A stretch of 64,000 nucleotides of DNA from an uncultured Solirubrobacteraceae bacterium (GTDB taxonomy: Bacteria; Actinomycetota; Thermoleophilia; Solirubrobacterales; Solirubrobacteraceae). Below, in pieces: positions 31,849 through 64,000 of the stretch (the stretch's first letter is position 1; each line of letters starts with the position of its first letter). Below the pieces are notes generated by a model. The model was not told the DNA's origin. It saw only the letters and a list, made by a program, of their open reading frames with translations, and made no database searches. Both the position numbers and the translations under genes were made by a program. The DNA is taken from assembly GCA_963698065.1 (NCBI GenBank), contig OY969117.1:3574329-3638328 (forward strand). Reading direction: 5' to 3'.

Positions 31849-31858
31849 CTGCGGATTT

Positions 31859-31866: not shown

Positions 31867-31912
31867 GTCGCAGGTACCTCCAACCGGCTATCAAGTGAGG
31901 AGCACCCACCAG

Positions 31913-42964: not shown

Positions 42965-44143
42965 TCAGGTGGGGTTGTGCGCAGGTTCGACGGGGAGCGC
43001 CGGAGCGCTCTCGCCGAGCTCCCCGTCGTGGACTCCTGCGCCCCCGTTGCGGGGGCCCACTGTCCCGTTTCCACCACCGACGCCCAGCCGCGTCTGCTCC
43101 AGCACCGCCATCGGCGTGAGCGCGCCCTCGAAGTGATCGCGCCCGAGACGGTGGCGAAAGACCCAGTAGCTCCAGGCCTGATAGGCGAGGACGATCGGCA
43201 CGAACACGATTGCCACCACGGTCATCACGGTCTGGGTGTAGTGCGTCGAGGAGGACGCCACGAGCGACAGGTCGTAGGCGTGGCTCGTGCTCGACGGCAG
43301 CGCGTTGGGGAAGAGGTTTACGAACAGCGTCACGAACAGCAGCGCGATCGCGCCGGCGCTGAGGGCGAACGCCCGCCCGTCGCGCTCACGGGCGACTGCG
43401 AGCGGGACCAGCGCGGCCAGCCCCACCGTCGCAACCGCGAGGATCAGAGCAGAGACCTTCAGGCCACCGGGGCTCGACTGGTCGATTGTCGTCCACAACA
43501 GGAAGCCCGCAAGCAGCGCCGCGCTCGTGAGCGATGCGATCCGGGCAACGGCGCGGGCACGCTTCACCATCTCGCCCTCGGTGCGCAGCGACAGGAAGAT
43601 CGCACCGTGGGCGAGGAACAGCGACAGCGTCACCAGGCCGCCCAGCAGGGCGTAGGGGTGAAGCAGATCCCACAGCGAGGCGGTGACGTTGTGGGCCGAG
43701 CTCATCGGCACGCCGTGGACGATGTCGGCCCAGCCCACGCCCCACAACAGCGCCGCCAGGAAGCTGCCGATCACGGCCGTCCACTCCCACGTCGCGCGCC
43801 AGCGCGACGAGTCTTCCTTGCCCCAGAACTCGAACGAGACGCCGCGTACGATCAGCGCCGCGAGGATCAGGAACAGGGCGATGTAGAAGCCGGAGAAGAG
43901 GCTCGCATACCAGCCGGGGAAGGCTGCGAACGTGGCGCCTCCCGCTGTCAGCAGCCACACCTCGTTGCCGTCCCACACGGGTCCGATCGTGTGGATGATC
44001 ATGCGCTTGTCGGTGTCGTCGCGCGAGAGCGCGCGCAGGAGGATGCCGACGCCGAAGTCGAAGCCCTCGAGCACGAAGTAGCCGATCCACAGCACGCCGA
44101 TCAGTCCGAACCACAGCGTCTGCAGGAAGTTGGGGTCGCGCAT
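42965..44143 (-). CDS. cydB: Cytochrome bd ubiquinol oxidase subunit II (with about 50-aa non-hydrophobic C-terminal tail)
   Basis: LWFGLIGVLWIGYFVLEGFDFGVGILL N-terminus. The tail ...EQTRLGVGGGNGTVGPRNGGAGVHDGELGESAPALPVEPAHNPT goes beyond the usual CydB length as I remember it. Confidence 0.9.
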   Translation of the reverse strand: MRDPNFLQTLWFGLIGVLWIGYFVLEGFDFGVGILLRALSRDDTDKRMIIHTIGPVWDGNEVWLLTAGGATFAAFPGWYASLFSGFYIALFLILAALIVRGVSFEFWGKEDSSRWRATWEWTAVIGSFLAALLWGVGWADIVHGVPMSSAHNVTASLWDLLHPYALLGGLVTLSLFLAHGAIFLSLRTEGEMVKRARAVARIASLTSAALLAGFLLWTTIDQSSPGGLKVSALILAVATVGLAALVPLAVARERDGRAFALSAGAIALLFVTLFVNLFPNALPSSTSHAYDLSLVASSSTHYTQTVMTVVAIVFVPIVLAYQAWSYWVFRHRLGRDHFEGALTPMAVLEQTRLGVGGGNGTVGPRNGGAGVHDGELGESAPALPVEPAHNPT

Positions 44144-44153
44144 GTCCTGCTCC

Positions 44154-45569
44154 TCAGTAGGCCAGTACGAGGTCGGGGTGGGTCGGAGCGGGTGCCTGGC
44201 CTCCGTCGGGCTCCGTGGCGGGCTCAGCTTCGGGGCCGTGCGCGATCTCCTTGAGGAACAGCCGGCCGCCGACGAGCAGCAGGATGCCGTAGAGCACCGT
44301 GTAGCCCACGAGGCTGAGGATGATCGTGCCCGAGCCGACGAGGGGGGAGCGCGCGTCGCTCGTCTTCAGCAGGCCGTAGACGACCCACGGCTGGCGCCCC
44401 ATCTCGGTGAAGATCCAGCCCGTCAGGTTCGCCAGGGGCGGAAGGAAGGCGCCGACGATCGCTGCTCGCAGGAACCAGCGCTTGCGCTCGATCAGCTTGC
44501 GGCGCATGAGCAGCAGGCCGAGCAGCGGGATCGCCAGCAGCAGCACGCCGATGCCGGCCATCAGGCGGAACGTCCAGTAGGTCACGCCCAGGATCGGCAC
44601 GTAGTCGCCCGGGCCGTATTTCTTCTGATCTTCGGCGTTGAGCTGGTTGACGCCCTTGACTTCACCGTTCCAGGAGGCACTGCCCAGGATCGAGAGCAGG
44701 TGGGGGATGCGAATGTCGGTGTTCAGCCGCTTGGGGAAGTGTTCAAAGGGACCGACCGCGAAGATCGACAGGCTCGCACCCTTGGTCGTCTTGTACAGCG
44801 CCTCGGCAGCCGCCATCTTCATCGGCTGCTGTTTCTCCATCAGCATCCCCTGGGTGTGGCCGAAGGCGCCGGTCAGGATCGCGGCACCGAGCGCCAGCGG
44901 CAGCACCATGCGCACCGAGCGCGAGTAGACCTCGTTGCCATGGCCCCGCAGCATCGCCAGCGCACAGATCCCCAGCACGAGGAAGGCGCCCGTGCAGATG
45001 GCCGCGAAGATCGTGTGCGGGAAGGCGAGCAGCAGCGTCGAGTTGGTGAGCACGGCGAAGATGCTCTTCAGCTCAGCGCGGTGCGTGGAGTGGTTGATCA
45101 CGTAGCCCACCGGGTGCTGCATCCACGAGTTGGCCGCGAGGATGAAGTAGGCAGACAGACACGCCCCGAAGGCCGTGAGCCACATCGTGGCGAGATGCAC
45201 CTTCGGCGAGAGGCGCCCCCAGCCGAAGATCCACAGCCCCAGGAAGGTCGACTCCAGGAAGAACGCGGCCAGTCCCTCCATCGCCAGCGGAGCGCCGAAG
45301 ATGTCGCCCACGTAGCGCGAGTATTCAGACCAGTTCATCCCAAACTGGAACTCCTGGACGATGCCCGTGACGACTCCGATCGCCAGCGAGATCAGCATGA
45401 ACTTGCCCCAGAAGCGGGTCATGCGCAGGTAGACCTCATCGCCCGTGCGATACCAGCGCGTCTGGCACCAGGCGACCCACACGGCGAGGCCAATCGACAT
45501 CGGCACGAAGATGAAGTGAAAGACCGTCGTGACCCCGAACTGGAGCCTGGCTAGTTCAAGTGTGTTCAC
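44154..45569 (-). CDS. cydA: Cytochrome bd ubiquinol oxidase subunit I
   Basis: MNTLELARLQFGVTTVFHFIFVPMSIGLAV..., Q-loop region and GWIFTEMGRQPWVV motif. Confidence 0.95.
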   Translation of the reverse strand: MNTLELARLQFGVTTVFHFIFVPMSIGLAVWVAWCQTRWYRTGDEVYLRMTRFWGKFMLISLAIGVVTGIVQEFQFGMNWSEYSRYVGDIFGAPLAMEGLAAFFLESTFLGLWIFGWGRLSPKVHLATMWLTAFGACLSAYFILAANSWMQHPVGYVINHSTHRAELKSIFAVLTNSTLLLAFPHTIFAAICTGAFLVLGICALAMLRGHGNEVYSRSVRMVLPLALGAAILTGAFGHTQGMLMEKQQPMKMAAAEALYKTTKGASLSIFAVGPFEHFPKRLNTDIRIPHLLSILGSASWNGEVKGVNQLNAEDQKKYGPGDYVPILGVTYWTFRLMAGIGVLLLAIPLLGLLLMRRKLIERKRWFLRAAIVGAFLPPLANLTGWIFTEMGRQPWVVYGLLKTSDARSPLVGSGTIILSLVGYTVLYGILLLVGGRLFLKEIAHGPEAEPATEPDGGQAPAPTHPDLVLAY

Positions 45570-45626: not shown

Positions 45627-46859
45627 CTACGGCAAACTACGCAGCAGCCGCAGCTCGTCGCGCAGCAGCCGTGGCAGCAGGAACTGCTCGCGAACGCGCT
45701 CGTGCCCGGTGCGACCGAGCTCCCGTGCCAGCTCGCGGTCGCGCAGCAGCTCGAGCATGCCGGCGGCGCACTCCTCAGTGCTCGAGACGAGCCGTCCCCC
45801 CGTTCCCGGAGGCATCTGCAGGGGAATGCCCCCGGCCCGCCCGGCAACGACGGGCGTGCGCTTCCACAGCGACTCTGAGACGACCAGGCCGAAGCCCTCG
45901 CGGATCGACTTCTGCACGACGACCTCGGACAGCAGCTGAAAGGCGTTGACCTCGACGTTGCTCACACCCGTGAGGTTGGTGTAGAGGTTGATCAGCGGAT
46001 CGTGCTCGGCCGCCTCGGAGACTTCGCGATACACATCCCAGCCCTCGGGATCGTCGAGGGCCATCGAGCCCACGAGCGCGAGCTGCAGCTCACCGATCTC
46101 AGCGCGCACCAAGCGATAGGCCTCGATCACACCGAGCGGGTCCTTCCACGGATCGAAGCGCGAGACCTGCGTGACGAGTCGGCCGGGGAGCTCGACGCCG
46201 ATCCAGTCGAGTATCTGGCTCGCCGTGCCAATGTCCAGATGGATGTTCTTGGGGCTGAGCGGGTCGATGGCCGGAGCGATCGTCTCGACGCGCGCGACGG
46301 GGAAGTCGGGCGGAACGAACTCGCCCATCGTGAACACGGCCGCGTCATAGTCGGCGAGCAGTGGACGCAGGAAGCTCCACGCCTGGGGGTTGGGCTCGCT
46401 CGTGTCGATGTGACAGCGCCACACCCAACGCGCCCCTCCGCTGCCATGCGCACCCAACAGCCCCGCGGGCTGAGGGTCGTGCACGACGACGAAGTCGTAG
46501 TCGTCGTCGAGTGACTGCGCGTTCTCGCGCACGCAATCGAGGTAGGCGCCCTGCTCGGCGTCGCTGAGCGCGCGCGTGGAGCCCTGCAGGCCGTTGTGGA
46601 GGGCCTTGGTCGCGGCGAAGAAGTCCGGGCTCCCAGCCATGACCTTCCAGTCGACCGCGAGGCCGATGTCGCGCAACAGCGGCACACTCGAGCGCAGGAG
46701 CTCCGAGACGCCGCCGCCGTAGGGGGTGGCGTTCACCTCGAGGATGCGCGCACCGGCGAGCTCGTGCGCCAGCTCCCTGAGCTCCTCGATGATCTCGGCT
46801 GGGGCGATCCCCTCATAGGAGTCGAGCGACCAGCGCCCCACGTTCACCTTTTGCAGCAT
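45627..46859 (-). CDS. treT: TreT-like trehalose synthase / GT4-family glycosyltransferase
   Basis: [55 protein letters not shown] matches the remembered TreT N-terminal signature. C-terminal [26 protein letters not shown] is the GT-B donor motif. Confidence 0.7.
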
Positions 46860-49570: not shown

Positions 49571-50263
49571 ATGGCTGCATTCCTACACGTCGCCCCACCT
49601 CTGGGCCAGTCCGATGTGGACCCGGGAACGGTGAGCAGGACCATCCATGTGGTCCTGGCGGACGATCATGTGCCGATGCGCCGGAGCCTGCGTCTGCTGC
49701 TCGATGGGGAGCCGGGACTGGAGGTCGTGGCCGAGGCCGACGACCACTCCTCGGCGACGCGCCACGTGCAAAGCCATCGGCCCGAGGTGCTCGTGCTCGA
49801 CCTCGGCATGCACGACGGCTCGAGCGTCGAAACGATTCGCTCGCTGAGCGAACGCGTGCCCGAGACCCGAATCGTGATCCTCACGATGGAGGACAACCCC
49901 GTGTTCGCCCAGCGTACGCTGACCGCCGGAGCGGTCGGCTTCGTGGCCAAGGATCTCGCCGATGTGGAGCTGCCGGAGGCGATTCGCGCTGCCGCTCGCG
50001 GCGAGGAATACGTGAGCCCGCGCGTCGCCGCCCGCCTGGACACGCTGCACCGGGCGCTGACCGATCACAAGCTCACCCAGCGTGAGGTCGAGGTCCTGCG
50101 CCTGATCGCCTTCGGGCACACGAGCGTCGAGATCGCACGCATGCTGCATCTCTCGCCGCGCACTATCGAGACGCATCGGGCGCACATCCACAAGAAGCTC
50201 GGACTGGCCTCCCGCTCGGAGCTCGTGCGCTACGCGCTGCGCCGCGGGCTGATCGGGGCCTGA
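49571..50263 (+). CDS. NarL/LuxR-family response regulator, paralog of 30196-30876
   Basis: IHVVLADDHVPMRRSLRLLL...EVLVLDLGMHDGS, LTQREVEVLRLIAFGHTSVEIARMLHLSPRTIETHRAHIHKKL. Alternative GTG start near 49641. Confidence 0.85.
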   Translation: MAAFLHVAPPLGQSDVDPGTVSRTIHVVLADDHVPMRRSLRLLLDGEPGLEVVAEADDHSSATRHVQSHRPEVLVLDLGMHDGSSVETIRSLSERVPETRIVILTMEDNPVFAQRTLTAGAVGFVAKDLADVELPEAIRAAARGEEYVSPRVAARLDTLHRALTDHKLTQREVEVLRLIAFGHTSVEIARMLHLSPRTIETHRAHIHKKLGLASRSELVRYALRRGLIGA

Positions 50264-51960
50264 GCGATCGAGGCTGGGCGTGGCTGGCCGGCGCGCCGCG
50301 CCGGGAGCCTTGCCGTCAGCAGGGTCCCGGCCTCGCTCGATTCGACGTGCATGGTGCCGCCCGCAAGGCCCACCCGCTCGCGCATCCCCGCCAGCCCGAA
50401 GCCCTGATCGACGCTGGCGGTGTCGAAGCCCTTGCCATCGTCCTTGACCTCGACCACCAGCTCGCCGTCTGCTTCGCCAATCGATACCGACACGCGCTTG
50501 GCGTGTGCGTGCTTGACGATGTTGGTGAGCGCCTCCTGCAAGAGCCTGTAGACCGTGACCTCGAGCTCGGCGTCGAGCCGCTCGCCTGCGTCCGGGGAGC
50601 GCCCGAGCGTCATCTCGGCCTCGATCTCCAGGCCACTGCGATCGTGGTGGCGGTCGAGCAGCGACTCGATCGCCGCGTGCAGGCCGAGCTCGTCGAGGGC
50701 TGCCGGACGCAGGTCGGTGATGATCGAGCGCAGGTTGCCGATCTCCTGCTCGATGCGCTGCACCGCGTCCCGCATCGCGCCCTGCGCGATCTCGAAGTCC
50801 TCGCGTCGCAGGGCAGCCGAGAGCAGCACCCGCAGGCCGCCCAGTCCCTGCAGCGTCTCGTCGTGGAGCTCGCGCGCCCAGCGACCCCGCTCAGCGTCAG
50901 CTGCGGCCTGGGCGCCGCGCAGGCGGTCAGCCAACACGCTCTGGGCCAGCACGACGGCCGTGGCTGCGCTGGCGGCGAACGTGCGCAGCGTCTGCTCGTC
51001 GTCCTCGGTGAACACGCCCGCGTCCTCGCCCCGGTCGAATGCTGCGAGCACGCCCACGGCATCGCCGCGATAGAGCATCGGCACGAGCAGCGCCGTCTGT
51101 GCGCCTTCGATGCCGAACTCGGCAGGGGCTATCCCCAGGCGCGCTTCGACGTCGACCACACGCTCGGGGCGATGGCGCTCGAGCACCTGCCCGGATGTGG
51201 AGGCGTCGATCGGCAAGCGTGCGCCGCGACCCTCCTGCACGTGGCCGGCACTCGCGTGCACGACCAGATCCTCACCCTCGCGCAACATGATCACGAGGCT
51301 GCGGGCAGCGACCAGCGCGCGTCCCCGCTTCGCGATCAGCTCGAGGACGTGCTCGAGCGCGATCTCTCCGCCGATCGCGACGGCCACGTCACGCGTGGCT
51401 TCCAGGCCACGCACGGCTTTCTCGAGCTCGTGGCGGCGCAGCTCGCTGACCTCGAACAGTCGAGCGTTGTGGATTGCCACGGCGGCCCAGTCGGCGAGGA
51501 TCACAGCGGCCTGCTCGTCGCGCTCGGTGAACTCGCCTCCACCCTCCTTCTCGGCCAGGTAGAGATTGCCCCACACCTCACCCCGTACGGCTACGGGCAC
51601 ACCGAGGAAGCTGCTCATCGCCGGGTGGGCGGCCGGGAAGCCGTAGCTGCGCGGATGCACGCCGACGTCTGCCAGACGCAGTGGCTCTGGATGCTCGATC
51701 AGGACGCCGAGCACCCCCCGCCCACGCGGGAGATCGCCGATCGCACGACGCGTCTCCTCGCCTATGCCGGAGGTGAGGAACTGGGCGAGCTCGGTGCGAC
51801 GCTCGTTGAGGACCCCGAGCGCGGCGTACTTGGCTCCGGTGATCTCACGCGCTGTCGCGAGCACCTGGTCGAGCACCAGGTCGAGGTCGAGCTCGGTTAC
51901 GAGCGACCGGCCCACATCGAGCAGGCGGCGAATCCACAGCTCATCCGGCGTCGAGTCCAT
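50230..51960 (-). CDS. Soluble GAF-GAF sensor histidine kinase (DevS/DosS/DosT-like architecture)
   Basis: Two GAF units (LVLDQVLATAREITGAKYAALGVL...GNLYLAEKE and LEHVLELIAKRGRALVAARSLVIML...). HisKA_3 H-box RWARELHDETLQGL. HATPase QEALTNIVKHA...VKDDGKGF. No TM segments. Confidence 0.85.
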   Translation of the reverse strand: MDSTPDELWIRRLLDVGRSLVTELDLDLVLDQVLATAREITGAKYAALGVLNERRTELAQFLTSGIGEETRRAIGDLPRGRGVLGVLIEHPEPLRLADVGVHPRSYGFPAAHPAMSSFLGVPVAVRGEVWGNLYLAEKEGGGEFTERDEQAAVILADWAAVAIHNARLFEVSELRRHELEKAVRGLEATRDVAVAIGGEIALEHVLELIAKRGRALVAARSLVIMLREGEDLVVHASAGHVQEGRGARLPIDASTSGQVLERHRPERVVDVEARLGIAPAEFGIEGAQTALLVPMLYRGDAVGVLAAFDRGEDAGVFTEDDEQTLRTFAASAATAVVLAQSVLADRLRGAQAAADAERGRWARELHDETLQGLGGLRVLLSAALRREDFEIAQGAMRDAVQRIEQEIGNLRSIITDLRPAALDELGLHAAIESLLDRHHDRSGLEIEAEMTLGRSPDAGERLDAELEVTVYRLLQEALTNIVKHAHAKRVSVSIGEADGELVVEVKDDGKGFDTASVDQGFGLAGMRERVGLAGGTMHVESSEAGTLLTARLPARRAGQPRPASIAQAPISPRRSA

Positions 51961-53570: not shown

Positions 53571-54010
53571 GCGCCGCCCCTTCCAGCAGCTCGAGCCGGT
53601 GCGTCGTCCTGGGCTACGACCGCTCCGAGGACTCGCGGGCGGCCGCCCACTGGGCCGTCCAGGAGCTGCTCCCCGACGGCAAGCTCGTGATCGTCCACGC
53701 CGGGCGACCGTTGCACGCTCCGCCCTCACCGCTCTCGAGCGCCCACGAGCGCGCCCAGCTCGGACGTGCGATCGTCGACGAGCTGCTGCTGGAGGGAGAG
53801 GACCAGTTGCACGACCTCGACCTCGCCGTCGAGATCCTCGACGAGGACCCTGTCAGCGCCCTGATCGACGCAGCCAAGCGCCACGAGGCGGGTGCAATCG
53901 TAATCGGCGGGCGCTCCCACTCGCGCCTTCACCGGGCCATCGGCGTCGTGACCGACGAGTTGCTCTCGCGCTCGCCGGTTGCTGTGATCGCCGTGCCTCG
54001 CCCGGCCTGA
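53567..54010 (+). CDS. Universal stress protein (single domain)
   Basis: ATG 53567 has an ATGA overlap with the upstream stop. CVVLGYDRSEDSRAAAHWAV...AGAIVIGGRSHSRLHRAIGVVTDELLSRSPVAVIAVPR. Confidence 0.8.
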   Translation: MSAAPSSSSSRCVVLGYDRSEDSRAAAHWAVQELLPDGKLVIVHAGRPLHAPPSPLSSAHERAQLGRAIVDELLLEGEDQLHDLDLAVEILDEDPVSALIDAAKRHEAGAIVIGGRSHSRLHRAIGVVTDELLSRSPVAVIAVPRPA

Positions 54011-55524: not shown

Positions 55525-55564
55525 CCGTCACACCTACCCCTGTCGCGCTCGCGGCTAACAGCGT

Positions 55565-56626
55565 TCAGGCGGCGGCTCGCCGCGAGGCTGGCGCATCGGC
55601 CAGCAGCTCACCCACCGCCGCCTCCACGCGGGCACGGATGCGCACGTCGGCCAGGTCGGGGCCCGTCTCGGCAAGCGACCCGAGCGATGCCCGGATCGTC
55701 ACGCCGTCCTGGTAGCGATCGATCACCCGGGGGTCCACGTAGGAGGCCCGGCACACGGCCGGCGTGTTGCCGAGATAGGCCGCCACGGTCTTGATGGCCG
55801 CGGTGATCGTGCGGGCGCTGGGAGCACGCCCGGCCGCAGCCTCCTCGGAGGCCGCCAGGGCAACCGCCGCGAGCACGGTCGCGTTCCATGTGCGGAAGTC
55901 CTTGGCCGTGAAGTCACTGCCCGTGTGCTCCTTGATGTAAGCGTTGACGTCCTCGGGGTGAATCTCCACCCACCGTCCCTGCTCGCGACAGGCCAGCAGT
56001 TGGGTTCCGCTGCGTCTGCGCTTGAGCACGCTCACCACCGCGAGGGCGTCGTGATCGATGATCGCCTGCACTCGCCGCTGACCCGACTTGGCCGGGAAGT
56101 CGAAGACGATCCGATCGTCCTCGATCGTGACGTGCTCGCGGCGCATAGTGGTGAGCCCGTAGGACTCGTTGCGCTCGGCGTAGTCCTCGGAGCCGATGCG
56201 GAAGAAGCCGAGGTCGAGCAGGCGCACCGCACAGGCCAGTACGCGCCGCCGTGAGAGCTCCTCGTCCGCGGCCCCCGCTGTGAAGCGCAGGTCGCGCGCG
56301 ACCCGACGGCGCAGCTTCGCAAGCGCCTCGCCGAAGGCGATCATCGAATCGAACTTCTGCCTGTCGCGATGGGTGCGCCAACGCTCGTGGTAGAGGTACT
56401 GCTTGCGTCCAGCGGCGTCCACGCCGGTGGCCTGGAGGTGACCCAGCGGATCCATGCAGATCCAGACATCGCGCCACGCCGGAGGGATGGCGAGCTCGGC
56501 GATCCGTTGCAGAACCTCGGGATCGTCGATCCGCGCCCCCGCGGGGTCACGGTATTCGAAGCCTCGCCCGCGCCCGCGCCGGGCGATCCCGGGAGCGGCG
56601 CAGCTCGACCGCCTCAGACGGGGCAA
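55565..56626 (-). CDS. Bacterial type IB DNA topoisomerase (poxvirus-like)
   Basis: MPRLRRSSCAAPGIARRGRGRGFEYRDPAG...LAIPPAWRDVWICMDPLGHLQATGVDAAGRKQYLYHERWR...FTAKDFRTWNATV...GNTPAVCRASYVDPRV (catalytic Tyr context). Confidence 0.85.
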   Translation of the reverse strand: MPRLRRSSCAAPGIARRGRGRGFEYRDPAGARIDDPEVLQRIAELAIPPAWRDVWICMDPLGHLQATGVDAAGRKQYLYHERWRTHRDRQKFDSMIAFGEALAKLRRRVARDLRFTAGAADEELSRRRVLACAVRLLDLGFFRIGSEDYAERNESYGLTTMRREHVTIEDDRIVFDFPAKSGQRRVQAIIDHDALAVVSVLKRRRSGTQLLACREQGRWVEIHPEDVNAYIKEHTGSDFTAKDFRTWNATVLAAVALAASEEAAAGRAPSARTITAAIKTVAAYLGNTPAVCRASYVDPRVIDRYQDGVTIRASLGSLAETGPDLADVRIRARVEAAVGELLADAPASRRAAA

Positions 56627-56708
56627 CGTGCGACTCGACTGGGGACTCTGAGCCTCACCGAGGCTACGGATACCCTCGCGCTCATGCGCCGAAACGGCGG
56701 AGCCCCAA

Positions 56709-57269
56709 GTGAGAGAAGTTGCGCCTGCGGGTAGTCAACAGGCCATGGACGCAATCGGTGGGCCCACAGAGGCGCATGCCAACGGCAGCTCTGAGCACGC
56801 GGGGTACGCGCCGCACGAGCATCGTCCGCTGGGGAGCTACGCGGCGCTTACGGGCGTCTTCGGCGCCGGCCTGAGTGGGGCGCTGCTCGCACTGCGCGCC
56901 TCCGGGCGCGAGCTTCCGGAGCGCCTCGGCCTCGCCGACGTGCTGCTCGTGGGGATCGCATCGCACAAGCTCAGCCGCATGACGACCAAGGACAAGGCCA
57001 CGAGCTTCCTACGCGCGCCCTTCACGCGCTTCCAGGCCGATACGGGACACGCTGAGGTGTCGGAGGAGCCGCGCGGCAGCGGTGCACGCCGTGCGATCGG
57101 CGAACTGCTCATCTGCCCCTACTGCCTGGCGCAGTGGATCACGGCGGCGATGAGCGTGGGGCTCGTCGCCGCACCGCGCCAGACGCGCTTCATCGCCGCG
57201 ATCTACGCCGAGCTCACGCTCGCGGACTTCCTGCAGCTGGCCTATCGCGCGGCGGAGGAGCGGGCATGA
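56709..57269 (+). CDS. DUF1360-like integral membrane protein
   Basis: TM helices plus the ICPYCLAQWI motif that I associate with DUF1360. Start is GTG 56709 or ATG 56745. Confidence 0.6.
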   Translation: MREVAPAGSQQAMDAIGGPTEAHANGSSEHAGYAPHEHRPLGSYAALTGVFGAGLSGALLALRASGRELPERLGLADVLLVGIASHKLSRMTTKDKATSFLRAPFTRFQADTGHAEVSEEPRGSGARRAIGELLICPYCLAQWITAAMSVGLVAAPRQTRFIAAIYAELTLADFLQLAYRAAEERA

Positions 57270-57303
57270 TCGCCCGCGTTTCGGAGCAGCGGTCGATGGG
57301 CAA

Positions 57304-57945
57304 TTGGACAGTGTGTCCGAGCCCCGCATTTCGCTCACCTTCGACGACGGTCCCGACGAGACGTGGACGCCGCATGTCCTGGCCGAGCTGGAGCGCTGTG
57401 GCGCGCACGCGAGCTTCTTCGTGATCGCCGAGCGTCTGCGCCTGGCCCCATGGGTTGTGGAAGAGGTGGCGAGTGCCGGACATGAGGTCGCCCTGCACTG
57501 CGAGCGCCATGTGCGCCACACCGATCTGAGCGAGCGCGAGATCGAAGCCGACACGATCGCGGCGCTCGCCTCGTTCGCCGAAGTCGGCGTGCATCCGGTC
57601 CGCTGGCGCACGCCCTGGGGTGTATGCACCCCCGCGAGCATCCGCGTCGCCGAGCGCCACGGACTCGAGCTGGTGCACTGGAGCATCGACACGCACGATT
57701 GGCGTGGAGACTCGCCCGCGGCGATGCTCGACGCGGCGGAGGCCGACCTGGAGGACGGAGCGATCGTGCTGATGCACGACGGCCTTGGCCCCGGCTCCAG
57801 GAGGGACGGCTGCGCGAACACCGTGGCCTTGATCGAGCCGCTGTGCGCCCTCGCCACCGAGCGCGGACTTAGCCTCGTCGGCGAGACGCCTGGCCTCGAG
57901 CAGCCCGACCCGTTCCTGAGCTCCAGCCCGACGACCGGAGGGTGA
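57304..57945 (+). CDS. Polysaccharide deacetylase (NodB homology / CE4)
   Basis: ISLTFDDGPDETWTPHVLAELERCGAHASFFV, HEVALHCERH, IVLMHDG are the CE4 motifs. TTG 57304 or GTG 57313 start. Confidence 0.85.
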   Translation: MDSVSEPRISLTFDDGPDETWTPHVLAELERCGAHASFFVIAERLRLAPWVVEEVASAGHEVALHCERHVRHTDLSEREIEADTIAALASFAEVGVHPVRWRTPWGVCTPASIRVAERHGLELVHWSIDTHDWRGDSPAAMLDAAEADLEDGAIVLMHDGLGPGSRRDGCANTVALIEPLCALATERGLSLVGETPGLEQPDPFLSSSPTTGG

Positions 57946-59024
57946 TCGTGCAGACACTCGCCGAGGAGAGATCCGGGGACGCCCCGGCGGCGCTCGCGAC
58001 CGCGCTCGAGCAGATAGCCGCCTGCGCGGGCGATCTCGACGCCCACCCGCGCTTCCCCACGGAGAACCTCGAAAGCCTGAAGGCGGCGGGGATCGCCCAG
58101 CTCGCGGCCGACCGCGCGCACAGTGCTCTGGCGCAGGAAATCGCACTGGTTCGCGCCGTCGCGAGCGTCGACGCCTCGACGGCGCGCATCCTCGACGGGC
58201 ACTTCAACGGGGTCGAGCGGGTCGCCATGTGCGCACCGGGAGAACTGCGCGAGCGCGAGCTGGCGGAGGTCGCACGGGGCACGATCCTGCTGGGGGTGTG
58301 GGGCGCCGATCCAAGCGGGCGCGAGGGCACTCCCGCGTGGATCGAGCGCGCCACCGACGGTGCGCTGCTGCTCCAGGGCACCAAGAGCTTCTGCTCCGGG
58401 GCGGGCGGCGTCCAGCGCGCGCTCGTGGTCGCGCGCGACTGGAACGACGAGCGCCGGCTCGCCTACGTCGACACGCGCAACGGTCTCGAGATCGATCGTG
58501 GCTGGTATCGCGCGTCGGGGCTGCGCGCGTCGGAGAGCCACCTGGTCCATTTCCACGACACGCCCGTGCTTGCGCTCCTCGGGGGCGCAGACGAGCTCCT
58601 GCGCGAGCCCTACATCTCGGGCGACGGCGTGCGAACCGCGGCGACGTGGGCGGGGATCGCGGACTGCATCCTCGGGCGCACGCTGGCGGTGATCGACGCC
58701 GAGAAGGCAGACGATCTGCGCCTGCATGCGCTCGGGCGGATGCGCGTGGCCCACGGAACGATCGATCGCTGGCTCGAGCACACAGCCACACGGCTGCACG
58801 ACGAGCAGCGCCCGGGCGAGCTGGCGGGTGAATGCCGGGTCGCCGTGGCCGATGCGGCCCGCGTCATCTCCGCCGAAGCCGCGGGTGTGTGCGGCGCACG
58901 CGAGTTGGCGGCGGGCGGCGTGCTCGACCGCGCCCGGCGCGACCTCGACCTGTTCCTGCTGCAGCACCGGCTCGAGCCGAAGCTCGTGGCACTCGGTCGC
59001 AGCGCGCTGCAAACACGCGGATGA
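57942..59024 (+). CDS. Acyl-CoA dehydrogenase-like flavoprotein
   Basis: About 360 aa with the ACAD-like middle and C-terminal pattern (LQGTKSFCSGAGG..., GLRASESHLVHFHDTPV, ...ARRDLDLFLLQH). GTGA overlap with the deacetylase stop. GGAGG favours GTG 57948 as the real start. Confidence 0.7.
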   Translation: MIVQTLAEERSGDAPAALATALEQIAACAGDLDAHPRFPTENLESLKAAGIAQLAADRAHSALAQEIALVRAVASVDASTARILDGHFNGVERVAMCAPGELRERELAEVARGTILLGVWGADPSGREGTPAWIERATDGALLLQGTKSFCSGAGGVQRALVVARDWNDERRLAYVDTRNGLEIDRGWYRASGLRASESHLVHFHDTPVLALLGGADELLREPYISGDGVRTAATWAGIADCILGRTLAVIDAEKADDLRLHALGRMRVAHGTIDRWLEHTATRLHDEQRPGELAGECRVAVADAARVISAEAAGVCGARELAAGGVLDRARRDLDLFLLQHRLEPKLVALGRSALQTRG

Positions 59025-59626
59025 GCCACGCGGAGACGGACACGGCGCGCACTCCGCCGGAGCACTTCGAGGCGCTGTACGAGGCGAGCCCGGACCCATG
59101 GAACTACGACTCGAGCGAGTACGAGCGGGAGAAGTACGCGGCCACGCTGGACGCGGTGGGGCCCGGTCCGCACGGGCGTGCGCTCGAGGTCGGATGCTCG
59201 ATCGGAGCTTTCACGCAACTGCTCGCCCCCCGCTGCAGGGAGCTGGTGGCGATGGACTTCTCCGCGCGGGCGATCGAGCTGGCCAAGGCGCGCCTCGGCC
59301 TGCTCCCGAACGTAGAGGTCATCCAGGGGACCTTCCCCGAGCAGGCGCCCGCGGGGCGCTGGGATGTGGTGGTGTGCTCGGAGGTCCTCTACTACCTGGG
59401 CCGCTCGGCGTTCATGCTGGCGGTGCAATGGCTGCGCCGCCAGCTCGAGCAGGGGACGCGTCTGGTGGCGGTCAGCTGGCGGGGCGAGGGGATGAGTGAG
59501 CCGCTGCGCGGGGATTGGGCGCACGATCGGCTACTCACCGAGTTGCACGACTGGCATGTCCTCGACGGACGCCGGCCGGGCTACAGGCTCGATCGCTTCG
59601 ACGGCCATGGCCCCGATCGCGTCTAG
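59021..59626 (+). CDS. NodS-like SAM-dependent methyltransferase
   Basis: HFEALYEASPDPWNYDSSEYEREKYAATLDAV...ALEVGCSIGAFTQLLAPRC...VVVCSEVLYYL has the NodS-family layout. ATGA overlap with the upstream stop. Confidence 0.8.
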   Translation: MSHAETDTARTPPEHFEALYEASPDPWNYDSSEYEREKYAATLDAVGPGPHGRALEVGCSIGAFTQLLAPRCRELVAMDFSARAIELAKARLGLLPNVEVIQGTFPEQAPAGRWDVVVCSEVLYYLGRSAFMLAVQWLRRQLEQGTRLVAVSWRGEGMSEPLRGDWAHDRLLTELHDWHVLDGRRPGYRLDRFDGHGPDRV

Positions 59627-59630
59627 CTCG

Positions 59631-61388
59631 ATGAACGCGCCCGCCGAGTGCCTGCGCGCGGTCGTCGTGGTCCCGGCCCGCGACGAGGCGCTGCGGATCG
59701 GCGCGTGCCTGCGTGCTCTGGCCGATCAGCGCGAGCTCCCGCCAGACGCCTACGAGGTGATCGTCGTGCTCGACGGCTGTCGTGACGAGACCGCCGAGGT
59801 CGTGGCCCGATTCGCGGCGGGAACCCCTCGGCTCGCCCTGCACGCGGTCGAGCTGGACGCTCCGCGAGGAGTCGGATGGGCACGCCGGCTCGGCATGGAT
59901 CTGGCATGCGAGCGCCTGCTCGGACTCGGTCGCGAGCAGGGCCTGATCGCGAGCACGGACGCCGACAGCGTGGTCGCGCCCGACTGGCTCGCCACCCAGC
60001 TCGAGTTGAGCGGGCAGGGCGCCCGCGCGATCGGCGGCCAGATCGAGCTGGACCCGACCGAGGCGCTGGAGCTCTCGGCCGAGACGCTGAGCGACCGGGA
60101 GCGCGGTCGCTCGGAGCGGATGCGCACAGTGCTCGGCCAGGGTGACGGACACGATCAAACGCACATCGAGCACCACCAGTTCAGCGGGGCTTCGCTCGCC
60201 CTCACCGCCGAGGCATACCGCGAGTGCGGGGGCCTGCCCGTGCGAGCGGCCCTGGAGGACGAGGCGCTGGAGCTCGAGCTGGGGGCGCTCGGCATTCCGA
60301 TTCACCGCAGCCGCAGGGTGCGGGTGATGACCTCCGCCCGCACCGAGGGGCGCGCGCCGCGGGGGCTTGCTCGCGATCTCGCCCGCTCGGATTGGCGAGC
60401 TCGCCGGAGCTATCGTGCGCCGGAGTTCTCCCTGGAGCGGCTGCTCGAGCTCAAGTCGTGCTCGATCGCGCTCGTGCTGCCCGCGCGCGAGGTGGCCGCG
60501 ACGATCGGCCCGATCGTGAGGCTGGCAGCGGGACTGCGCGACGTGGGGCTGCTCGACGAGGTGCTCGTAATCGACGCCGCCTCGGGCGATGGCAGCGCAC
60601 GTGTTGCGAGCGCCGAGGGGGTCCGCGTGGTGCAGGAGAGCGAGATCGCGGAGGAGCTCGGGCCCGCGCGGGGCAAGGGCGATGCGATGTGGCGGGCGCT
60701 CAGCGTCGTAGAGAGCGAGATCGTGGCCTACGTCGACACCGACACCGAGCAGCTCGGAGGGCAGTTCATCACGGGCCTGCTCGGTCCCCTGATCTGCGAG
60801 CCCGAGATCCAGCTCGTGAAGGGGTTCTTCAGGCGACCGTTTCGCGCCGAGGGACAGGTGCTGGCAGAGGGAGGCGGCCGGGTGACCGAGCTGATGGCAC
60901 GTCCGCTGCTGAACCTGCACGCTCCGGAGCTCGCTGTGTTCGACCAGCCGCTCGCGGGCGAGGTGGCGGCTCGTCGCAGGCTGCTCGAGCAGATTCCCTT
61001 CAGCGCCGGCTACGGCGTGGAGATCGCGATGCTGATCGACGCCTGGCGGATCGTGGGCATGGACGGCCTGGCCCAGGTCGATTTGGGCGTTCGCCAGAAT
61101 CGCCACCAGTCGCTGCGCGATCTCTCGGCGATGGCCTACGCCGTGCTGGTTGCAGCCTCATCGCGTCTGCTGGGTGAGGACTTCGCCGACGCTCACGCGG
61201 TCGGCTCGCTGTCGCTGCCGCCCCTGCCGGGCGCAAGTGCGATGGAGTCGAGGCGCGTGCCGATCGAGGAGCGCCCGCCGCTAGCCGTCTACCGGTCCTC
61301 GGCTCCCCACTGCGGCTCCTCGCCCTGGGCGACCTCGCTCGCCTCACCCGTCTCGGCTGAGGCCAGGACGAACACCTCGGCGTTGTAG
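59631..61388 (+). CDS. Two-domain glycosyltransferase: N-terminal GT2 domain fused to a glucosyl-3-phosphoglycerate synthase (GpgS)-like GT domain
   Basis: Domain 1: AVVVVPARDEALRIGACLRALADQ...VIVVLDGCRDET...STDADSVVAPDWL. Domain 2: IALVLPAREVAATIG...VLVIDAASGDGS...ARGKGDAMWRAL...VDTDTEQL...GGGRVTELMARPLLNLHAPELAVFDQPLAGEVAARR...SAGYGVEIAMLID...VRQNRHQSL. ATG 59631 lies 4 nt after the methyltransferase stop. Confidence 0.8.
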   Translation: MNAPAECLRAVVVVPARDEALRIGACLRALADQRELPPDAYEVIVVLDGCRDETAEVVARFAAGTPRLALHAVELDAPRGVGWARRLGMDLACERLLGLGREQGLIASTDADSVVAPDWLATQLELSGQGARAIGGQIELDPTEALELSAETLSDRERGRSERMRTVLGQGDGHDQTHIEHHQFSGASLALTAEAYRECGGLPVRAALEDEALELELGALGIPIHRSRRVRVMTSARTEGRAPRGLARDLARSDWRARRSYRAPEFSLERLLELKSCSIALVLPAREVAATIGPIVRLAAGLRDVGLLDEVLVIDAASGDGSARVASAEGVRVVQESEIAEELGPARGKGDAMWRALSVVESEIVAYVDTDTEQLGGQFITGLLGPLICEPEIQLVKGFFRRPFRAEGQVLAEGGGRVTELMARPLLNLHAPELAVFDQPLAGEVAARRRLLEQIPFSAGYGVEIAMLIDAWRIVGMDGLAQVDLGVRQNRHQSLRDLSAMAYAVLVAASSRLLGEDFADAHAVGSLSLPPLPGASAMESRRVPIEERPPLAVYRSSAPHCGSSPWATSLASPVSAEARTNTSAL

Positions 61389-61714
61389 TCGGGGTCGTGG
61401 TGGCCCGCGCTCATGAAAGCCACGACGTCGCGGTGGAGCTCCTCCTCGATGACCTGCCGGAAGCGCTCGTTCATGACCTCCTGGAGCTCGGCGCGCAGGT
61501 CCATCACCGCGCGTGAGCGCCCCTCTTCGATCAGCGTCTTCTCGGCCTGGGTGTAGCCGCCGCTGAGCAGCACCACGACGAGATCGCCCGAGTAGTAGGT
61601 GCGAGCCTTCGTGGGGCCCTTGCCGTAGTGCTCCTTGAGCAGCCCGACGATGCGTCGCGAGATGGCCGCGAGCGTTGCCCCGTGCTCGTCACGTGTGGTT
61701 CCCCCGTTGCCCAT
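61289..61714 (-). CDS. DUF2294-like small cytoplasmic protein
   Basis: LAAISRRIVGLLKEHYGKGPTKARTYYSGDLVVVLLSGGYTQAEKTLIEEGRSRAVMDLRAELQEVM...AEVFVL. Start MGNGGTT at 61714 preferred. The acidic tail overlaps the convergent GT gene. Confidence 0.6.
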   Translation of the reverse strand: MGNGGTTRDEHGATLAAISRRIVGLLKEHYGKGPTKARTYYSGDLVVVLLSGGYTQAEKTLIEEGRSRAVMDLRAELQEVMNERFRQVIEEELHRDVVAFMSAGHHDPDYNAEVFVLASAETGEASEVAQGEEPQWGAEDR

Positions 61715-61730
61715 GGCGACAAGGTAGCCC

Positions 61731-62213
61731 CTAATGGGCAGGCGTGTGCCCAGCGAGCAGCTCGAGCGCATGCGGCAAGGACTCGGCGATCGCGCCGCCG
61801 GCCTGCTCGATGCTGCGCGGGCTTCCCGGGAAATTGACGATCAGCGTCCTCCCGGCCACGCCCGCCACACCGCGCGAGAGCATCCAGTGGCGCGTGTGGA
61901 TCTTCGAGGCGTCGCGCATCGCCTCGGCGATGCCAGGCGCCTCGCGCTCGATCACCGCGCGCGTGGCCTCGGGCGTCACGTCGCTCGGCGCGAGTCCCGT
62001 GCCGCCGGTGGTCAACACCAGCGCGCAGTCCTCAGCTGTGACCCAGCTGCGCAGGCTTGCTTCGATCGCGCTGCGCTCGTCGCTCACGAGCTCGCGGCCG
62101 GCGATCTCCAAGCCCATGCCCTCGGCGAAGGCGGCGAGTCGCGCTCCGCTCTCGTCCTCCCCACGACCGGCGGCCTTGGATGTGCTGATCGTGAGGATCG
62201 CCGCGCGCATCAT
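61731..62213 (-). CDS. mog: Molybdenum cofactor biosynthesis protein MogA/MoaB (MoCF_biosynth domain)
   Basis: MMRAAILTISTS..., LVLTTGGTGLAPSDVTPEAT, NFPGSPRS. ATGA overlap with the moaC stop. Confidence 0.85.
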   Translation of the reverse strand: MMRAAILTISTSKAAGRGEDESGARLAAFAEGMGLEIAGRELVSDERSAIEASLRSWVTAEDCALVLTTGGTGLAPSDVTPEATRAVIEREAPGIAEAMRDASKIHTRHWMLSRGVAGVAGRTLIVNFPGSPRSIEQAGGAIAESLPHALELLAGHTPAH

Positions 62214-62707
62214 CCGTCCTCCTGCAGTCGGTAGTCGCTGCGCCCGCCGCGCTTCTCGAGCAGCACGACCTCCTCGACCACCACACCGCGCTCGATGCCC
62301 TTGACCATGTCGTAGACGGTCAACGCGGCCATCGCGCACGCGACCATCGCCTCCATCTCCACGCCGGTGCGGGCGATAGTACGCACCTCGGCCACGAGCT
62401 CCACGATCCCCGCCTCCACGTTCACGCTCGCGGTCACGTCGGCGAAGCTCAGGGGGAGCGGATGCGCGAGCGGGATCAGCTGCCCGGTCTGCTTGGCCGC
62501 CATCACCCCGGCCAGCCGGGCCACACCGAGCACCTCGCCCTTGGGCCCGTCGCCGGCCTGCACCGCCCGCGCAGTGGCGGGCGACATCCGCAGCCGTGCG
62601 CGGGCGCGAGCGATGCGCTCGGTGATCGGCTTCTCGCCCACGTCGACCATGCGCGCACGTCCGTCCTCGCCGATGTGGGTGGGACGCTGGGGGATCTGGT
62701 CGCTCAC
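62210..62707 (-). CDS. moaC: Cyclic pyranopterin monophosphate synthase MoaC
   Basis: THIGEDGRARMVDVGEKPITER..., LIPLAHPLPL, TGVEMEAMVA. I prefer GTG 62707 (GTGA overlap with the upstream stop). The ORF-track start is 62734. Confidence 0.9.
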   Translation of the reverse strand: MSDQIPQRPTHIGEDGRARMVDVGEKPITERIARARARLRMSPATARAVQAGDGPKGEVLGVARLAGVMAAKQTGQLIPLAHPLPLSFADVTASVNVEAGIVELVAEVRTIARTGVEMEAMVACAMAALTVYDMVKGIERGVVVEEVVLLEKRGGRSDYRLQEDG

Positions 62708-63414
62708 GTTGACGGCTCCGCGCCGGGGGCCCATCGCTGCGCGCCGTCGGCTTCGTGTTCGCGCTTCCAGATCGGCGCCTCGGCCTTCAGCCTGTCGATC
62801 GCCGCGCGTGCACCGTCGAACGCTTCGGAGCGGTGCGGCGCGGACACGGCCACGATCACGCTGGGCTCACCCAGCCTGACGCTGCCGATGCGGTGCTCCA
62901 CTGCGGCCGCACACAGTCCGTGGGTGGCGATGCACTCGCGCATGATCCGCTCGATGCGCTCGCGCGCCATCTCCACGTAGGCCTCGTAGTCGAGGCGCTC
63001 GACCTCCCTGGTCACGCCCTGGAACGCCACGATCGCTCCGGCGCGAGGGTCGCCGACGGCACGAGCGAGGTCGTCCAACGACAGCGGCTCCTCGGTGATG
63101 CGCACGTGCAGCGCGGTGCGGCCCGGGTCCTCGTTGCTCGCCGAGCCACCGCTCACGGGCGGGATCAGCGCCAGCTCGTCGTGCTCTTGGAGCACCGTCT
63201 CGGGCGCTGCGTACTCGCGGTTGACGGCCAGCTGCACGGGCAGTCGCTCGAGCACGCCTCGCAACGTCTCCAACCTGGAGAGGCTGCGCAGGGCGTCAGC
63301 CACGGTGGCGTTCACGGGCAGCTCCAGCTCGAGGCTCCGAGCGCCGGCGCGTTCGCGCAGGATCGCAAACAGCCGCACCTCGACCCTCATGTGTCCAACC
63401 GCAGGAGAGCTCAT
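62704..63414 (-). CDS. Fused molybdopterin synthase MoaD-MoaE (MoaX-like)
   Basis: MoaD part MRVEVRLFAILRERAG...DELALIPPVSGG ends in the diglycine. It is followed in frame by a MoaE part LSLDDLARAVGDPRAGAIVAFQGVTRE...GEPSVIVAVSAPHRSEAF...LKAEAPIWKRE. ATG 63414 has an ATGA overlap with the moeA stop. Confidence 0.85.
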   Translation of the reverse strand: MSSPAVGHMRVEVRLFAILRERAGARSLELELPVNATVADALRSLSRLETLRGVLERLPVQLAVNREYAAPETVLQEHDELALIPPVSGGSASNEDPGRTALHVRITEEPLSLDDLARAVGDPRAGAIVAFQGVTREVERLDYEAYVEMARERIERIMRECIATHGLCAAAVEHRIGSVRLGEPSVIVAVSAPHRSEAFDGARAAIDRLKAEAPIWKREHEADGAQRWAPGAEPST

Positions 63415-64000
63415 GTGAGCCCTTCTCCCCATAGCGGCTCGATCTGAACGCGCTCGCCCGCGCGCACGCCCGACGAGTCGCTGGGCAGCAGCGCTAGCGC
63501 GTCGGCGGCGAGCATCGAGGTGAGCACGTGCGAACCCTGAGCGCCGGTGGGCTGGGCGTGCCAACCGTCGGCCTGCGTGCTGAGGCGGACGCGCACGGCA
63601 TGCGCGCGCCCGCGTGACTTCTCGTAGTCGACGTCCATCACCGCTGAGCGGCGGGGCCCGTAGGGAGGCAGGCCGAGCATCGAGCGCAGCGCCGGCTGGA
63701 CGAGCAGCACGAACGTGACCATCGCCGAAACCGGATTTCCGGGCAACCCGAAGACAAGCGCTCCGTCGAGCGTGCCGAACCACGTGGGATGCCCGGGCTT
63801 GAGCGCGAGCCCCCAGAACACCTCGCTCGCGCCCAGAGCCGAGAGGCCTCCGCGCACGTGGTCATGGGCTCCCACCGAGACGCCTCCGCAGATGACCGCG
63901 ACGTCGGCGGACGAGACTGACGTGGCGATCGCCGCGGTGGTCTGCCCGGAATCGTCCCCCACCGCTGCCACGCGCACCACCTCCGCCCCCGCTCGCCGCG
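63411..64000 (-). CDS. moeA: Molybdopterin molybdotransferase MoeA, C-terminal part (start beyond window)
   Basis: DVAVICGGVSVGAHDHV...LALKPGHPTWFG...VFGLPGNPVSAMVTF...ERVQIEPL. The frame stays open to the window edge. Confidence 0.8.
   Translation of the reverse strand, partial: RRAGAEVVRVAAVGDDSGQTTAAIATSVSSADVAVICGGVSVGAHDHVRGGLSALGASEVFWGLALKPGHPTWFGTLDGALVFGLPGNPVSAMVTFVLLVQPALRSMLGLPPYGPRRSAVMDVDYEKSRGRAHAVRVRLSTQADGWHAQPTGAQGSHVLTSMLAADALALLPSDSSGVRAGERVQIEPLWGEGLT

Follow-up and report, generated by a model that had tools for sequence, protein, structure and literature searches.

Within a 64,000-nucleotide (nt) stretch of DNA from an uncultured Solirubrobacteraceae bacterium (contig OY969117.1; the whole stretch is called the window here), we studied a cluster of five genes at positions 56709-61388, encoding a DUF1360 membrane protein, a CE4 deacetylase, a flavoprotein with the fold of acyl-CoA dehydrogenases (ACADs), a NodS-family methyltransferase and a fusion of a GT2 glycosyltransferase with a GT81 domain. 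Four of these functions, namely CE4, the ACAD-fold protein, the methyltransferase and GT2, constitute a conserved unit, and the best reading of the locus is that it would represent the Solirubrobacteraceae version of an apparently ancient, cytoplasmic small-molecule pathway of several phyla. For the reactions themselves we propose, with a probability of roughly 40%, a scheme in which the GT81 domain would form a glycosyl-(3-phospho)glycerate, the GT2 domain would attach an N-acetylhexosamine to it and CE4 would deacetylate this sugar, followed by methylation and oxygenation. The enzyme families are all familiar, and their combination is one without a characterised pathway. The marks that distinguish this locus are the use of CE4 instead of a PIG-L deacetylase, the GT81 fusion and a deleted reductase gene. 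The features are given below in positions of the whole window; all five open reading frames (ORFs) lie on the plus strand.

56709..57269, plus strand: DUF1360 small membrane protein at the 5' end of the operon (PF07098, E-value 1.5e-30)
57304..57945, plus strand: CE4 (NodB-homology) de-N-acetylase (PF01522, E-value 3e-19; TTG start at 57304)
57942..59024, plus strand: putative ACAD-fold flavoprotein of the DszC/SfnB/MsuC class (weak PF02770 match; NCBIfam, profile and fold matches)
59021..59626, plus strand: NodS-family S-adenosylmethionine (SAM)-dependent methyltransferase (PF05401, E-value 6e-20)
59606..59612, plus strand: deletion scar with the 7-bp microhomology CATGGCC (alignment against the metagenomic contig L089)
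59631..60365, plus strand: soluble GT2 (GT-A) domain, N-terminal half of the fusion (PF00535, E-value 7e-19)
60366..61388, plus strand: GT81 glycosyl-3-phosphoglycerate synthase domain (GpgS/MpgS type), C-terminal half of the fusion (NF010496, 346 bits)

A preliminary description of this DNA had listed a tight five-gene cluster, and direct reading of the sequence bore out its coordinates, gene order and junctions. The DUF1360 stop codon (57267-57269) and the TTG start of CE4 are separated by a gap of 34 nt, the CE4 and ACAD-like genes overlap by a GTGA (57942-57945), the ACAD-like and methyltransferase genes overlap by an ATGA (59021-59024), and the methyltransferase stop codon TAG (59624-59626) is followed by the glycosyltransferase ATG at 59631. 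For DUF1360 a start at ATG 56745, which gives 174 amino acids (aa) and is the call made in contig L089 (98% identical), seems more likely. The assignment of the five genes to families likewise held in Pfam and NCBIfam searches, albeit only weakly for the ACAD-like protein, whose sole Pfam match (PF02770) reached 20 bits against a cut-off of 33.3, with no match to the N- or C-terminal ACAD domains. None of the four enzymes carries a transmembrane-like segment and all are predicted to be soluble. The GC content is even along the locus (0.69-0.73), and a promoter and terminator scan of positions 56300-61900 found none, as expected for such a GC content and this type of scan. The best genome match was a Solirubrobacteraceae metagenome-assembled genome (L001) with 94% protein identity. 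Compared with L089, the ratio of non-synonymous to synonymous polymorphism (pN/pS) was 0.04-0.33 for the operon genes, with 0.04 for DUF1360, which is the same range as for flanking housekeeping genes; the operon genes are under purifying selection.

For the analysis of gene neighbourhoods we used the ACAD-like protein as the anchor. A relative is encoded by 444 species-representative genomes, and the best 80 of these, all Solirubrobacterales, were analysed, with neighbour genes detected by tblastn. The methyltransferase and the GT2 domain each adjoined the ACAD-like gene in 78 of the 80 loci and CE4 did so in 75, while the GT81 domain was present in 76, contiguous and in frame with the GT2 domain. 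This arrangement is far beyond chance. The pairing of a deacetylase with a NodS-type methyltransferase, which had been proposed from the window alone, is thus real and conserved, and the gene overlaps together with the conserved neighbourhood support the earlier view of a single, translationally coupled unit. We consider it highly probable that the locus is one conserved operon of these enzyme classes.

DUF1360 does not share this conservation. It was detected in 12 of the 80 loci by tblastn and in 11 by a more sensitive iterative search, lying upstream on the same strand only in close relatives of the window; three loci have it downstream and three on the opposite strand. Given this rarity and the three different arrangements, DUF1360 is not a pathway member; it is a lineage-specific insertion between a divergent type IB topoisomerase gene and CE4, and we discarded it both as a core partner and as the membrane partner that the preliminary description had seen in it. 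The topoisomerase gene (55565-56626, minus strand; Top1B_N_bact and Topoisom_I domains) is divergent from the operon and is the upstream neighbour in 44-53 of the 80 loci. When the flanking ORFs of these loci were clustered, with a noisy output that included spurious high-GC ORFs, only this gene recurred, which is a matter of synteny rather than function.

The ACAD-like protein is the member whose role departs most from its label, and its most economical reading, given the sequence profile, the shared motifs, the predicted fold and an adjacent, replaceable reductase in most relatives, is that of a predicted oxygenase component of a two-component flavin monooxygenase. Its best NCBIfam matches were SfnB (9e-11) and DszC (2e-8), both far below every equivalog cut-off; the same two families came out on top for both branches of the ACAD-like family, and DszC/TdsC were the best sequence matches in the PDB. 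A profile built from 42 sequences of the family matched DszC over its full length at 4.8e-11 and MsuC at 3e-10. The family, DszC and MsuC have in common a K-x-F-C-S-G-A motif and a C-terminal R-x-x-R-[DN]...Q-H...P...K motif, and the C-terminal region, in which Q341-H342 is invariant within the family, aligns to DszC/MsuC. By motif alignment to the sequence of medium-chain acyl-CoA dehydrogenase (MCAD), these two residues presumably take the place of the catalytic Glu of ACADs (YEGT motif). The AlphaFold2 model (predicted local distance difference test (pLDDT) 88.6) had as its top Foldseek neighbours DszC, TdsC, MsuC, a flavin-containing monooxygenase and the nitrososynthases DnmZ, KijD3 and ORF36 (TM-scores 0.74-0.83).

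The likeness to these monooxygenases therefore extends over fold, full-length profile, shared motifs and, in most relatives, an adjoining gene for a candidate reductase partner. The differences are an identity of only about 20% and membership in a separate, small family: of 1.84 billion representatives clustered at 50% identity, 719 matched at E<=1e-3 and 49 at E<=1e-30. In addition, the reductases of the known enzymes are of the DszD/SsuE type, whereas those of the Solirubrobacterales loci are of the ferredoxin-reductase type and the PIG-L modules of other phyla, described below, lack an adjacent reductase. In favour of the monooxygenase assignment, Pfam Acyl-CoA_dh_2 matches are found in the distant branch of the family. 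The suggestion that the protein handles an acyl group found no support in these comparisons, since it stays below the Pfam ACAD thresholds, its affinities are with the flavin monooxygenases of the DszC/SfnB/MsuC class, and a reductase gene usually adjoins its own.

Alternatively, the ACAD-fold protein could be a dehydrogenase or oxidase that carries out C-N oxidation of a (methyl)amino sugar, by oxidative deamination or demethylation, or a desaturation, with the Pyr_redox_2 protein encoded next to it in most relatives being an independent redox enzyme. True ACADs and carrier-protein dehydrogenases (4iv6, 7w0j, ColB1) are indeed found among the fold neighbours with similar scores, and the reductase is ferredoxin-reductase-like and dispensable. 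We nevertheless regard this alternative as unlikely, because sequence and profile comparisons consistently put DszC, SfnB and MsuC first, the FCSGA and C-terminal motifs are shared with them, and Q341-H342 presumably stands where ACADs have their catalytic Glu.

The reductase merits closer description. About 65 of the 80 loci have a further gene, some 1.2 kb long, between those for the methyltransferase and GT2. It encodes a protein of about 390 aa with Pyr_redox_2 and Reductase_C domains, which comes closest to the ferredoxin-NAD+ reductase families HcaD and AndAa. No copy was found anywhere in the 64-kb window. Contig L089, which is equally syntenic on both sides, retains the gene and has the order type IB topoisomerase, DUF1360, CE4, ACAD-like, methyltransferase, reductase, GT2::GT81, MpsC-like gene and molybdenum cofactor (Moco) genes. 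Positions 55559-59612 of the window correspond to L089 3-4056 at 98.1% identity and positions 59606-62500 to L089 5222-8116 at 96.1%, so that the window differs by a deletion of 1172 bp between the imperfect 7-bp repeats CATGGCC and CACGGCC (L089 4050-5228). The reductase gene was deleted recently from the window copy. By the same event, a Thr codon of the glycosyltransferase became an in-frame ATG at 59607, in the former start region of the reductase; this ATG, overlapping the methyltransferase stop, may serve as an alternative start, and the glycosyltransferase may now be translated from the initiation site of the lost gene.

Reductase-less loci are scattered among reductase-bearing nearest neighbours, which implies at least about eight independent losses of the gene in which the other cassette genes survived; a flavin reductase that can be replaced would be expected to behave in this way. 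The oxygenase of this strain would then have to rely on another cellular reductase. One could also suppose that the operon is decaying in this strain, the loss having disabled the oxygenase step and left a pseudo-operon in the making, since the recent deletion took a gene that is kept by about 80% of the relatives. We consider this very unlikely: all remaining ORFs are intact, the deletion itself recreated an in-frame ATG for the glycosyltransferase, the pN/pS values given above resemble those of the flanking housekeeping genes, and at least eight other lineages without the reductase keep the other genes intact. For the ACAD-like gene in particular, decay after loss of the reductase was rejected on the basis of its pN/pS relative to L089.

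Turning to the two enzymes with Nod-like names, the CE4 protein matched the NodB model TIGR04243 (E-value 5e-31) with 107.6 bits against an equivalog cut-off of 240. All five catalytic motifs are present (TFDD, HCERH for HxxxH, RTPWG for RxPxG, DTHDW for DxxDW, and LMH), and these motifs, including the Asp-His-His metal triad, align with those of its closest relatives, the peptidoglycan N-acetylglucosamine (GlcNAc) deacetylases 5o6y and 7y51. Because the catalytic domain begins at about residue 4, which leaves no room for a signal peptide, CE4 is predicted to be cytoplasmic, like NodB; a transmembrane-like segment is absent as well. The methyltransferase matched the NCBIfam model for NodS (NF041650) at 3e-23 with 82.4 bits against a cut-off of 300, and among PDB entries it matched 4isc (8e-20) and NodS 3ofj (8e-16).

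The resemblance to Nod-factor synthesis thus consists in NodB and NodS families standing side by side, both cytoplasmic, with a GT2 in the same operon, and in the logic of deacetylating a sugar and then methylating the freed amine. In contrast to that system, both enzymes stay below their equivalog cut-offs, NodC is membrane-bound and processive whereas the GT2 is a short soluble domain, and a flavin monooxygenase, usually together with a reductase, is an added constant member. A NodA-type acyltransferase was absent from the operon and from the related cassettes examined, in agreement with what had been noted for the operon.

The preliminary description had gone on to propose a Nod-factor-like glycolipid or acylated glycoconjugate, with the ACAD-like protein handling the acyl group and DUF1360 as the membrane partner. 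This proposal draws on the co-occurrence of CE4, a NodS-family methyltransferase and GT2 and on DUF1360, which is co-directional in the window after a 34-nt gap and is found beside the cluster in three arrangements. We give it the least credence of all the explanations considered here, as DUF1360 is missing from about 68 of the 80 loci, an acyltransferase is absent, the ACAD-like protein stays below the Pfam ACAD thresholds and has its affinities with flavin monooxygenases, the GT2 domain is short, soluble and not NodC-like, and the module enzymes are soluble in every lineage checked. An envelope glycolipid as the product is equally unsupported, given that every enzyme is predicted to be soluble.

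The glycosyltransferase provides the main clue to the acceptor. Its GT2 domain comprises about 245 aa, has no transmembrane-like segment, which agrees with its earlier description as soluble, and, when its sequence is read, reveals no QxxRW motif. Across 30 homologues the DAD and ED motifs do not vary. The AlphaFold2 model (pLDDT 90.9) has a generic GT-A fold, for which Foldseek returned only generic GT2 neighbours (TM-score about 0.65), with processive synthases far down the list. An assignment to the NodC class therefore cannot be upheld beyond membership in CAZy family GT2, as the domain is short and soluble, lacks QxxRW and has no specific structural neighbour. The idea that the GT2 domain is itself GT81-like was rejected from the same fold search.

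The C-terminal domain, in turn, is a genuine GT81 domain, as its description as GpgS-like had implied: it scored 346 bits with NF010496 against a cut-off of 262, and the conserved blocks GKGDAMWR, DTD, GGGRVTEL, QPLAGE and RQNRHQ are kept. The best matches were the MpgS of Rubrobacter xylanophilus (3f1y, 8e-71) and mycobacterial GpgS (7p5l, 1.6e-59). The Rubrobacter enzyme, its nearest solved relative, reportedly accepts both glucose (Glc) and mannose (Man). On sequence grounds the domain should be called GpgS/MpgS type, with the hexose (Glc or Man) left unnamed. It resembles GpgS (Rv1208) and MpgS (3f1y) in passing the NCBIfam GpgS cut-off and in keeping the conserved blocks, and differs from them in being the C-terminal half of a two-glycosyltransferase fusion inside a tailoring operon. 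The two halves are joined without a linker, as the GpgS alignment begins at the residue directly after the GT2 domain. At its other end, the glycosyltransferase ORF overlaps a convergent MpsC-like gene (61289-61771, minus strand; PF10057) by 100 nt (61289-61388), as it also does in L089. The L001 glycosyltransferase stops sooner and has another C-terminal tail, so that the last 30 or so residues of the window protein probably form an extension without a function.

A search with the GT2 domain also retrieved stand-alone homologues of 254-280 aa that are 51-57% identical, one of them labelled Thermoleophilaceae. On long contigs, such proteins of 254-260 aa are encoded in cassettes of CE4, ACAD-like protein, NodS methyltransferase, Pyr_redox_2 protein and GT2 (contigs L081, L083, L086 and partly L085), with 4-nt gene overlaps and unrelated flanks. 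The GT81 fusion was seen only in Solirubrobacterales loci, the other cassettes examined having a stand-alone GT2, and GpgS cannot, contrary to the first impression from the window, be counted as a core part.

This distribution leads to a possible, though on the whole unlikely, explanation that competes with our scheme: the core module could act on another acceptor, such as a small molecule, a nucleotide-linked intermediate or a protein, while the GT81 domain makes ordinary glucosyl- or mannosyl-3-phosphoglycerate as part of compatible-solute synthesis, the fusion serving only to co-regulate the two under one and the same stress. In line with this, outside the Solirubrobacterales loci no GpgS was seen near the stand-alone GT2, and the GT81 domain scores as a normal GpgS, closest to Rubrobacter MpgS and mycobacterial GpgS. 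Against it speak the in-frame, linker-less GT2::GT81 fusion, which is kept in 76 of the 80 species-level genomes, and the fact that two-glycosyltransferase fusions usually mark consecutive steps.

To place the unit in a wider context, we compared it with modules from other phyla. A distant branch of the ACAD-like family (about 26-30% identity) is common in Hymenobacter, Spirosoma, Neolewinella, Leptolyngbya and Microcoleus, and a collection of plasmids showed it on large replicons of Deinococcus (nine records), Nostoc, Methylobacterium, sphingomonads, Bradyrhizobium, Sulfitobacter and Paracoccus. Gene maps revealed the ACAD-like protein together with a PIG-L deacetylase, a NodS-family methyltransferase and a GT2/GT-A glycosyltransferase in Spirosoma radiotolerans, Leptolyngbya, Novosphingobium, Bradyrhizobium and Sulfitobacter, with the PIG-L-type module of Deinococcus radiodurans being in split form. 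When the proteins of the window were compared by BLASTP with the modules of Spirosoma, Leptolyngbya, Novosphingobium, Bradyrhizobium, Sulfitobacter and Deinococcus, each query hit its counterpart specifically, with identities of 31-42% for the methyltransferase (five other lineages), 32-40% for GT2 and 26-30% for the ACAD-like protein. A cluster of GT2, LmbE-type deacetylase, methyltransferase and ACAD in other high-GC bacteria, which the preliminary description had mentioned only tentatively, hence exists and is homologous. These modules share the four functions with the window, the methyltransferase, GT2 and ACAD-like protein being homologous by sequence, but their deacetylase is PIG-L instead of CE4, and they have neither a GpgS fusion nor, unlike most Solirubrobacterales loci, an adjoining Pyr_redox_2 reductase. 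The GT2s of all these modules are predicted to be soluble.

The deacetylases of the two versions are non-homologous, with CE4 in Solirubrobacterales and PIG-L/LmbE in other phyla. That three enzymes are homologous across phyla while the fold of the deacetylase is swapped constitutes strong evidence that removal of an N-acetyl group would be an obligatory step. The partners are further tied to each other by gene fusions within the ACAD-like family, which link all of them: CE4::ACAD-like (P0040, P0044, P0253 and others), ACAD-like::NodS methyltransferase (P0248, P0254, P0391, and in reverse order P0329), GT4::ACAD-like (P0333) and ACAD-like::PIG-L (P0350). The ACAD-like member of D. radiodurans (L091 4735-7074, on a 412-kb replicon) is a protein of 779 aa with the ACAD-like domain at its C-terminus; its N-terminal 400 or so aa have no Pfam match and differ from the GT4 domain of P0333.

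In Acinetobacter baumannii, the genes ACICU_02432-02435 next to blsA, labelled as glycosyltransferase, SAM methyltransferase, LmbE and acyl-CoA dehydrogenase-related, form a co-regulated unit (PMC5660220; PMC6240043). This operon bears the same four gene labels, and its homology to the module rests on these annotation labels only. Full-text literature searches found no product or function described for the module, the A. baumannii operon alone being listed, as uncharacterised; work on the neighbouring DUF2171 gene was also retrieved. The same searches found no characterised pathway that combines these functions, as had been presumed at the start.

Catalase genes lie beside or inside the module in four lineages of different phyla (L081 2978-4456; L093 1-1323; L095 7836-9899; L088 9791-10588), the Leptolyngbya case being a Mn-catalase, and none was found in the 80 Solirubrobacterales loci. 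Their proximity may hint at co-regulation under oxidative or general stress.

A second known system to which the module can be compared is the synthesis of low-molecular-weight thiols. Mycothiol (MshA/MshB) and bacillithiol (BshA/BshB) synthesis likewise involves cytoplasmic transfer of GlcNAc to a small acidic or polyol acceptor, followed by a dedicated deacetylase, and BshB is the closest match to the PIG-L deacetylase found in the sister modules. In such a comparison, 3-phosphoglycerate or glycerate would stand where bacillithiol and mycothiol use malate or inositol phosphate. The thiol pathways, however, use GT4 with PIG-L, whereas the window encodes GT2 (GT-A) with CE4, and instead of a cysteine ligase (MshC/BshC) or an acetyltransferase there are a methyltransferase and an oxygenase. 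The locus is, as judged by these families, a member of neither the Nod-factor nor the mycothiol/bacillithiol pathway, and the likeness appears to be one of pathway logic only.

According to the scheme put forward at the outset, the GT81 domain would condense an NDP-hexose (Glc or Man) with 3-phosphoglycerate, and the fused GT2 domain would add an N-acetylhexosamine to the resulting glycosyl-(3-phospho)glycerate. GlcNAc would be the likeliest donor sugar because both deacetylase families typically act on GlcNAc. CE4 would then strip the N-acetyl group and expose the amine, which the NodS-like enzyme would N-methylate, by analogy with NodB followed by NodS. Finally, the flavoenzyme would oxygenate the product with reduced flavin, the nitrogen being the probable target by analogy with the nitrososynthases KijD3, DnmZ and ORF36; the reduced flavin might be supplied by the neighbouring reductase in strains that have it and, in this strain, by a different one. 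Such a pathway would yield a soluble, modified amino-sugar glycosyl-glycerate with a possible relation to stress. The identity of the sugar, the acceptor, the order of the steps, the site of oxygenation and the physiological role are all inferred.

Several observations weigh against this scheme. Neither the sequence nor the fold of the GT2 domain reveals its donor or acceptor, and, since the GpgS fusion is confined to Solirubrobacterales loci, other lineages, and even this one, may use an acceptor other than a glycosyl-glycerate. For the oxygenation step, true ACADs are interleaved with the oxygenases in the Foldseek list, and the closest sequence relatives (DszC, SfnB and MsuC) oxidise sulfur, not nitrogen. 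Since the reductase is of the ferredoxin-NAD+ reductase type (HcaD/AndAa-like) and not a classical flavin reductase, its role as the supplier of flavin is an assumption, and in the window copy, which lacks it, the oxygenase step may be impaired. Lastly, the stress role rests on anecdotal context, that is, on catalase neighbours and the surroundings in the window.

A bolder version, which we hold to be doubtful, is that the product of the module is an N-methylated, N-oxygenated amino-sugar glycoside of the hydroxylamine or nitrone type and hence a new class of metabolite. It would be based on glucosyl- or mannosyl-glycerate in Solirubrobacterales and would be redox-active or protective in bacteria tolerant to desiccation, radiation or oxidative stress from at least five phyla, including D. 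radiodurans and A. baumannii. If this were true, the Solirubrobacterales fusion and reductase would be the key to the chemistry of the module.

Whatever its product, the combination is conserved from Thermoleophilia to Deinococcus, Bacteroidota, cyanobacteria, proteobacteria and, as far as labels tell, apparently the pathogen A. baumannii. The Solirubrobacterales loci contribute two clues that are missing from the other versions, namely the GT81 fusion, which nominates an acceptor, and the dedicated reductase, which points to oxygenase chemistry, and these two clues turn an anonymous cluster into a directly testable pathway. If the product is a new solute with a protective or redox activity, it would be relevant to how soil and clinical bacteria tolerate desiccation and oxidative stress; if it is only a minor decoration of glucosylglycerate, the pathway would add modestly to compatible-solute biochemistry.

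Among the window genes scanned, no phosphatase (GpgP/MpgP), sugar-nucleotide enzyme or flavin reductase turned up. The surroundings of the operon include a TreT-type trehalose synthase (45627-46859, minus strand), subunits I and II of cytochrome bd (42965-45569, minus), two CydDC-like ABC transporters (39634-42962, minus), a GAF-GAF-HisKA_3 sensor kinase (50230-51960, minus) with a LuxR-type response regulator (49571-50263, plus) that are reminiscent of DosS/DosR, and an ORF with a Usp domain at about 53600-54010, all of which hints at a stress- or dormancy-flavoured neighbourhood. Rfam and tRNA scans of the whole window gave no hits, a Moco riboswitch included. Directly downstream of the operon lies a string of Moco biosynthesis genes (61731-63980, minus), comprising MoaB/MogA-like, MoaC, a MoaD-MoaE fusion and MoeA, the annotation of which was transferred from the syntenic L089. 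Farther away, the window also encodes a Sulfotransfer_4 family protein (20249-20989, minus) and a phosphoketolase (XFP; 31781-34345, plus).

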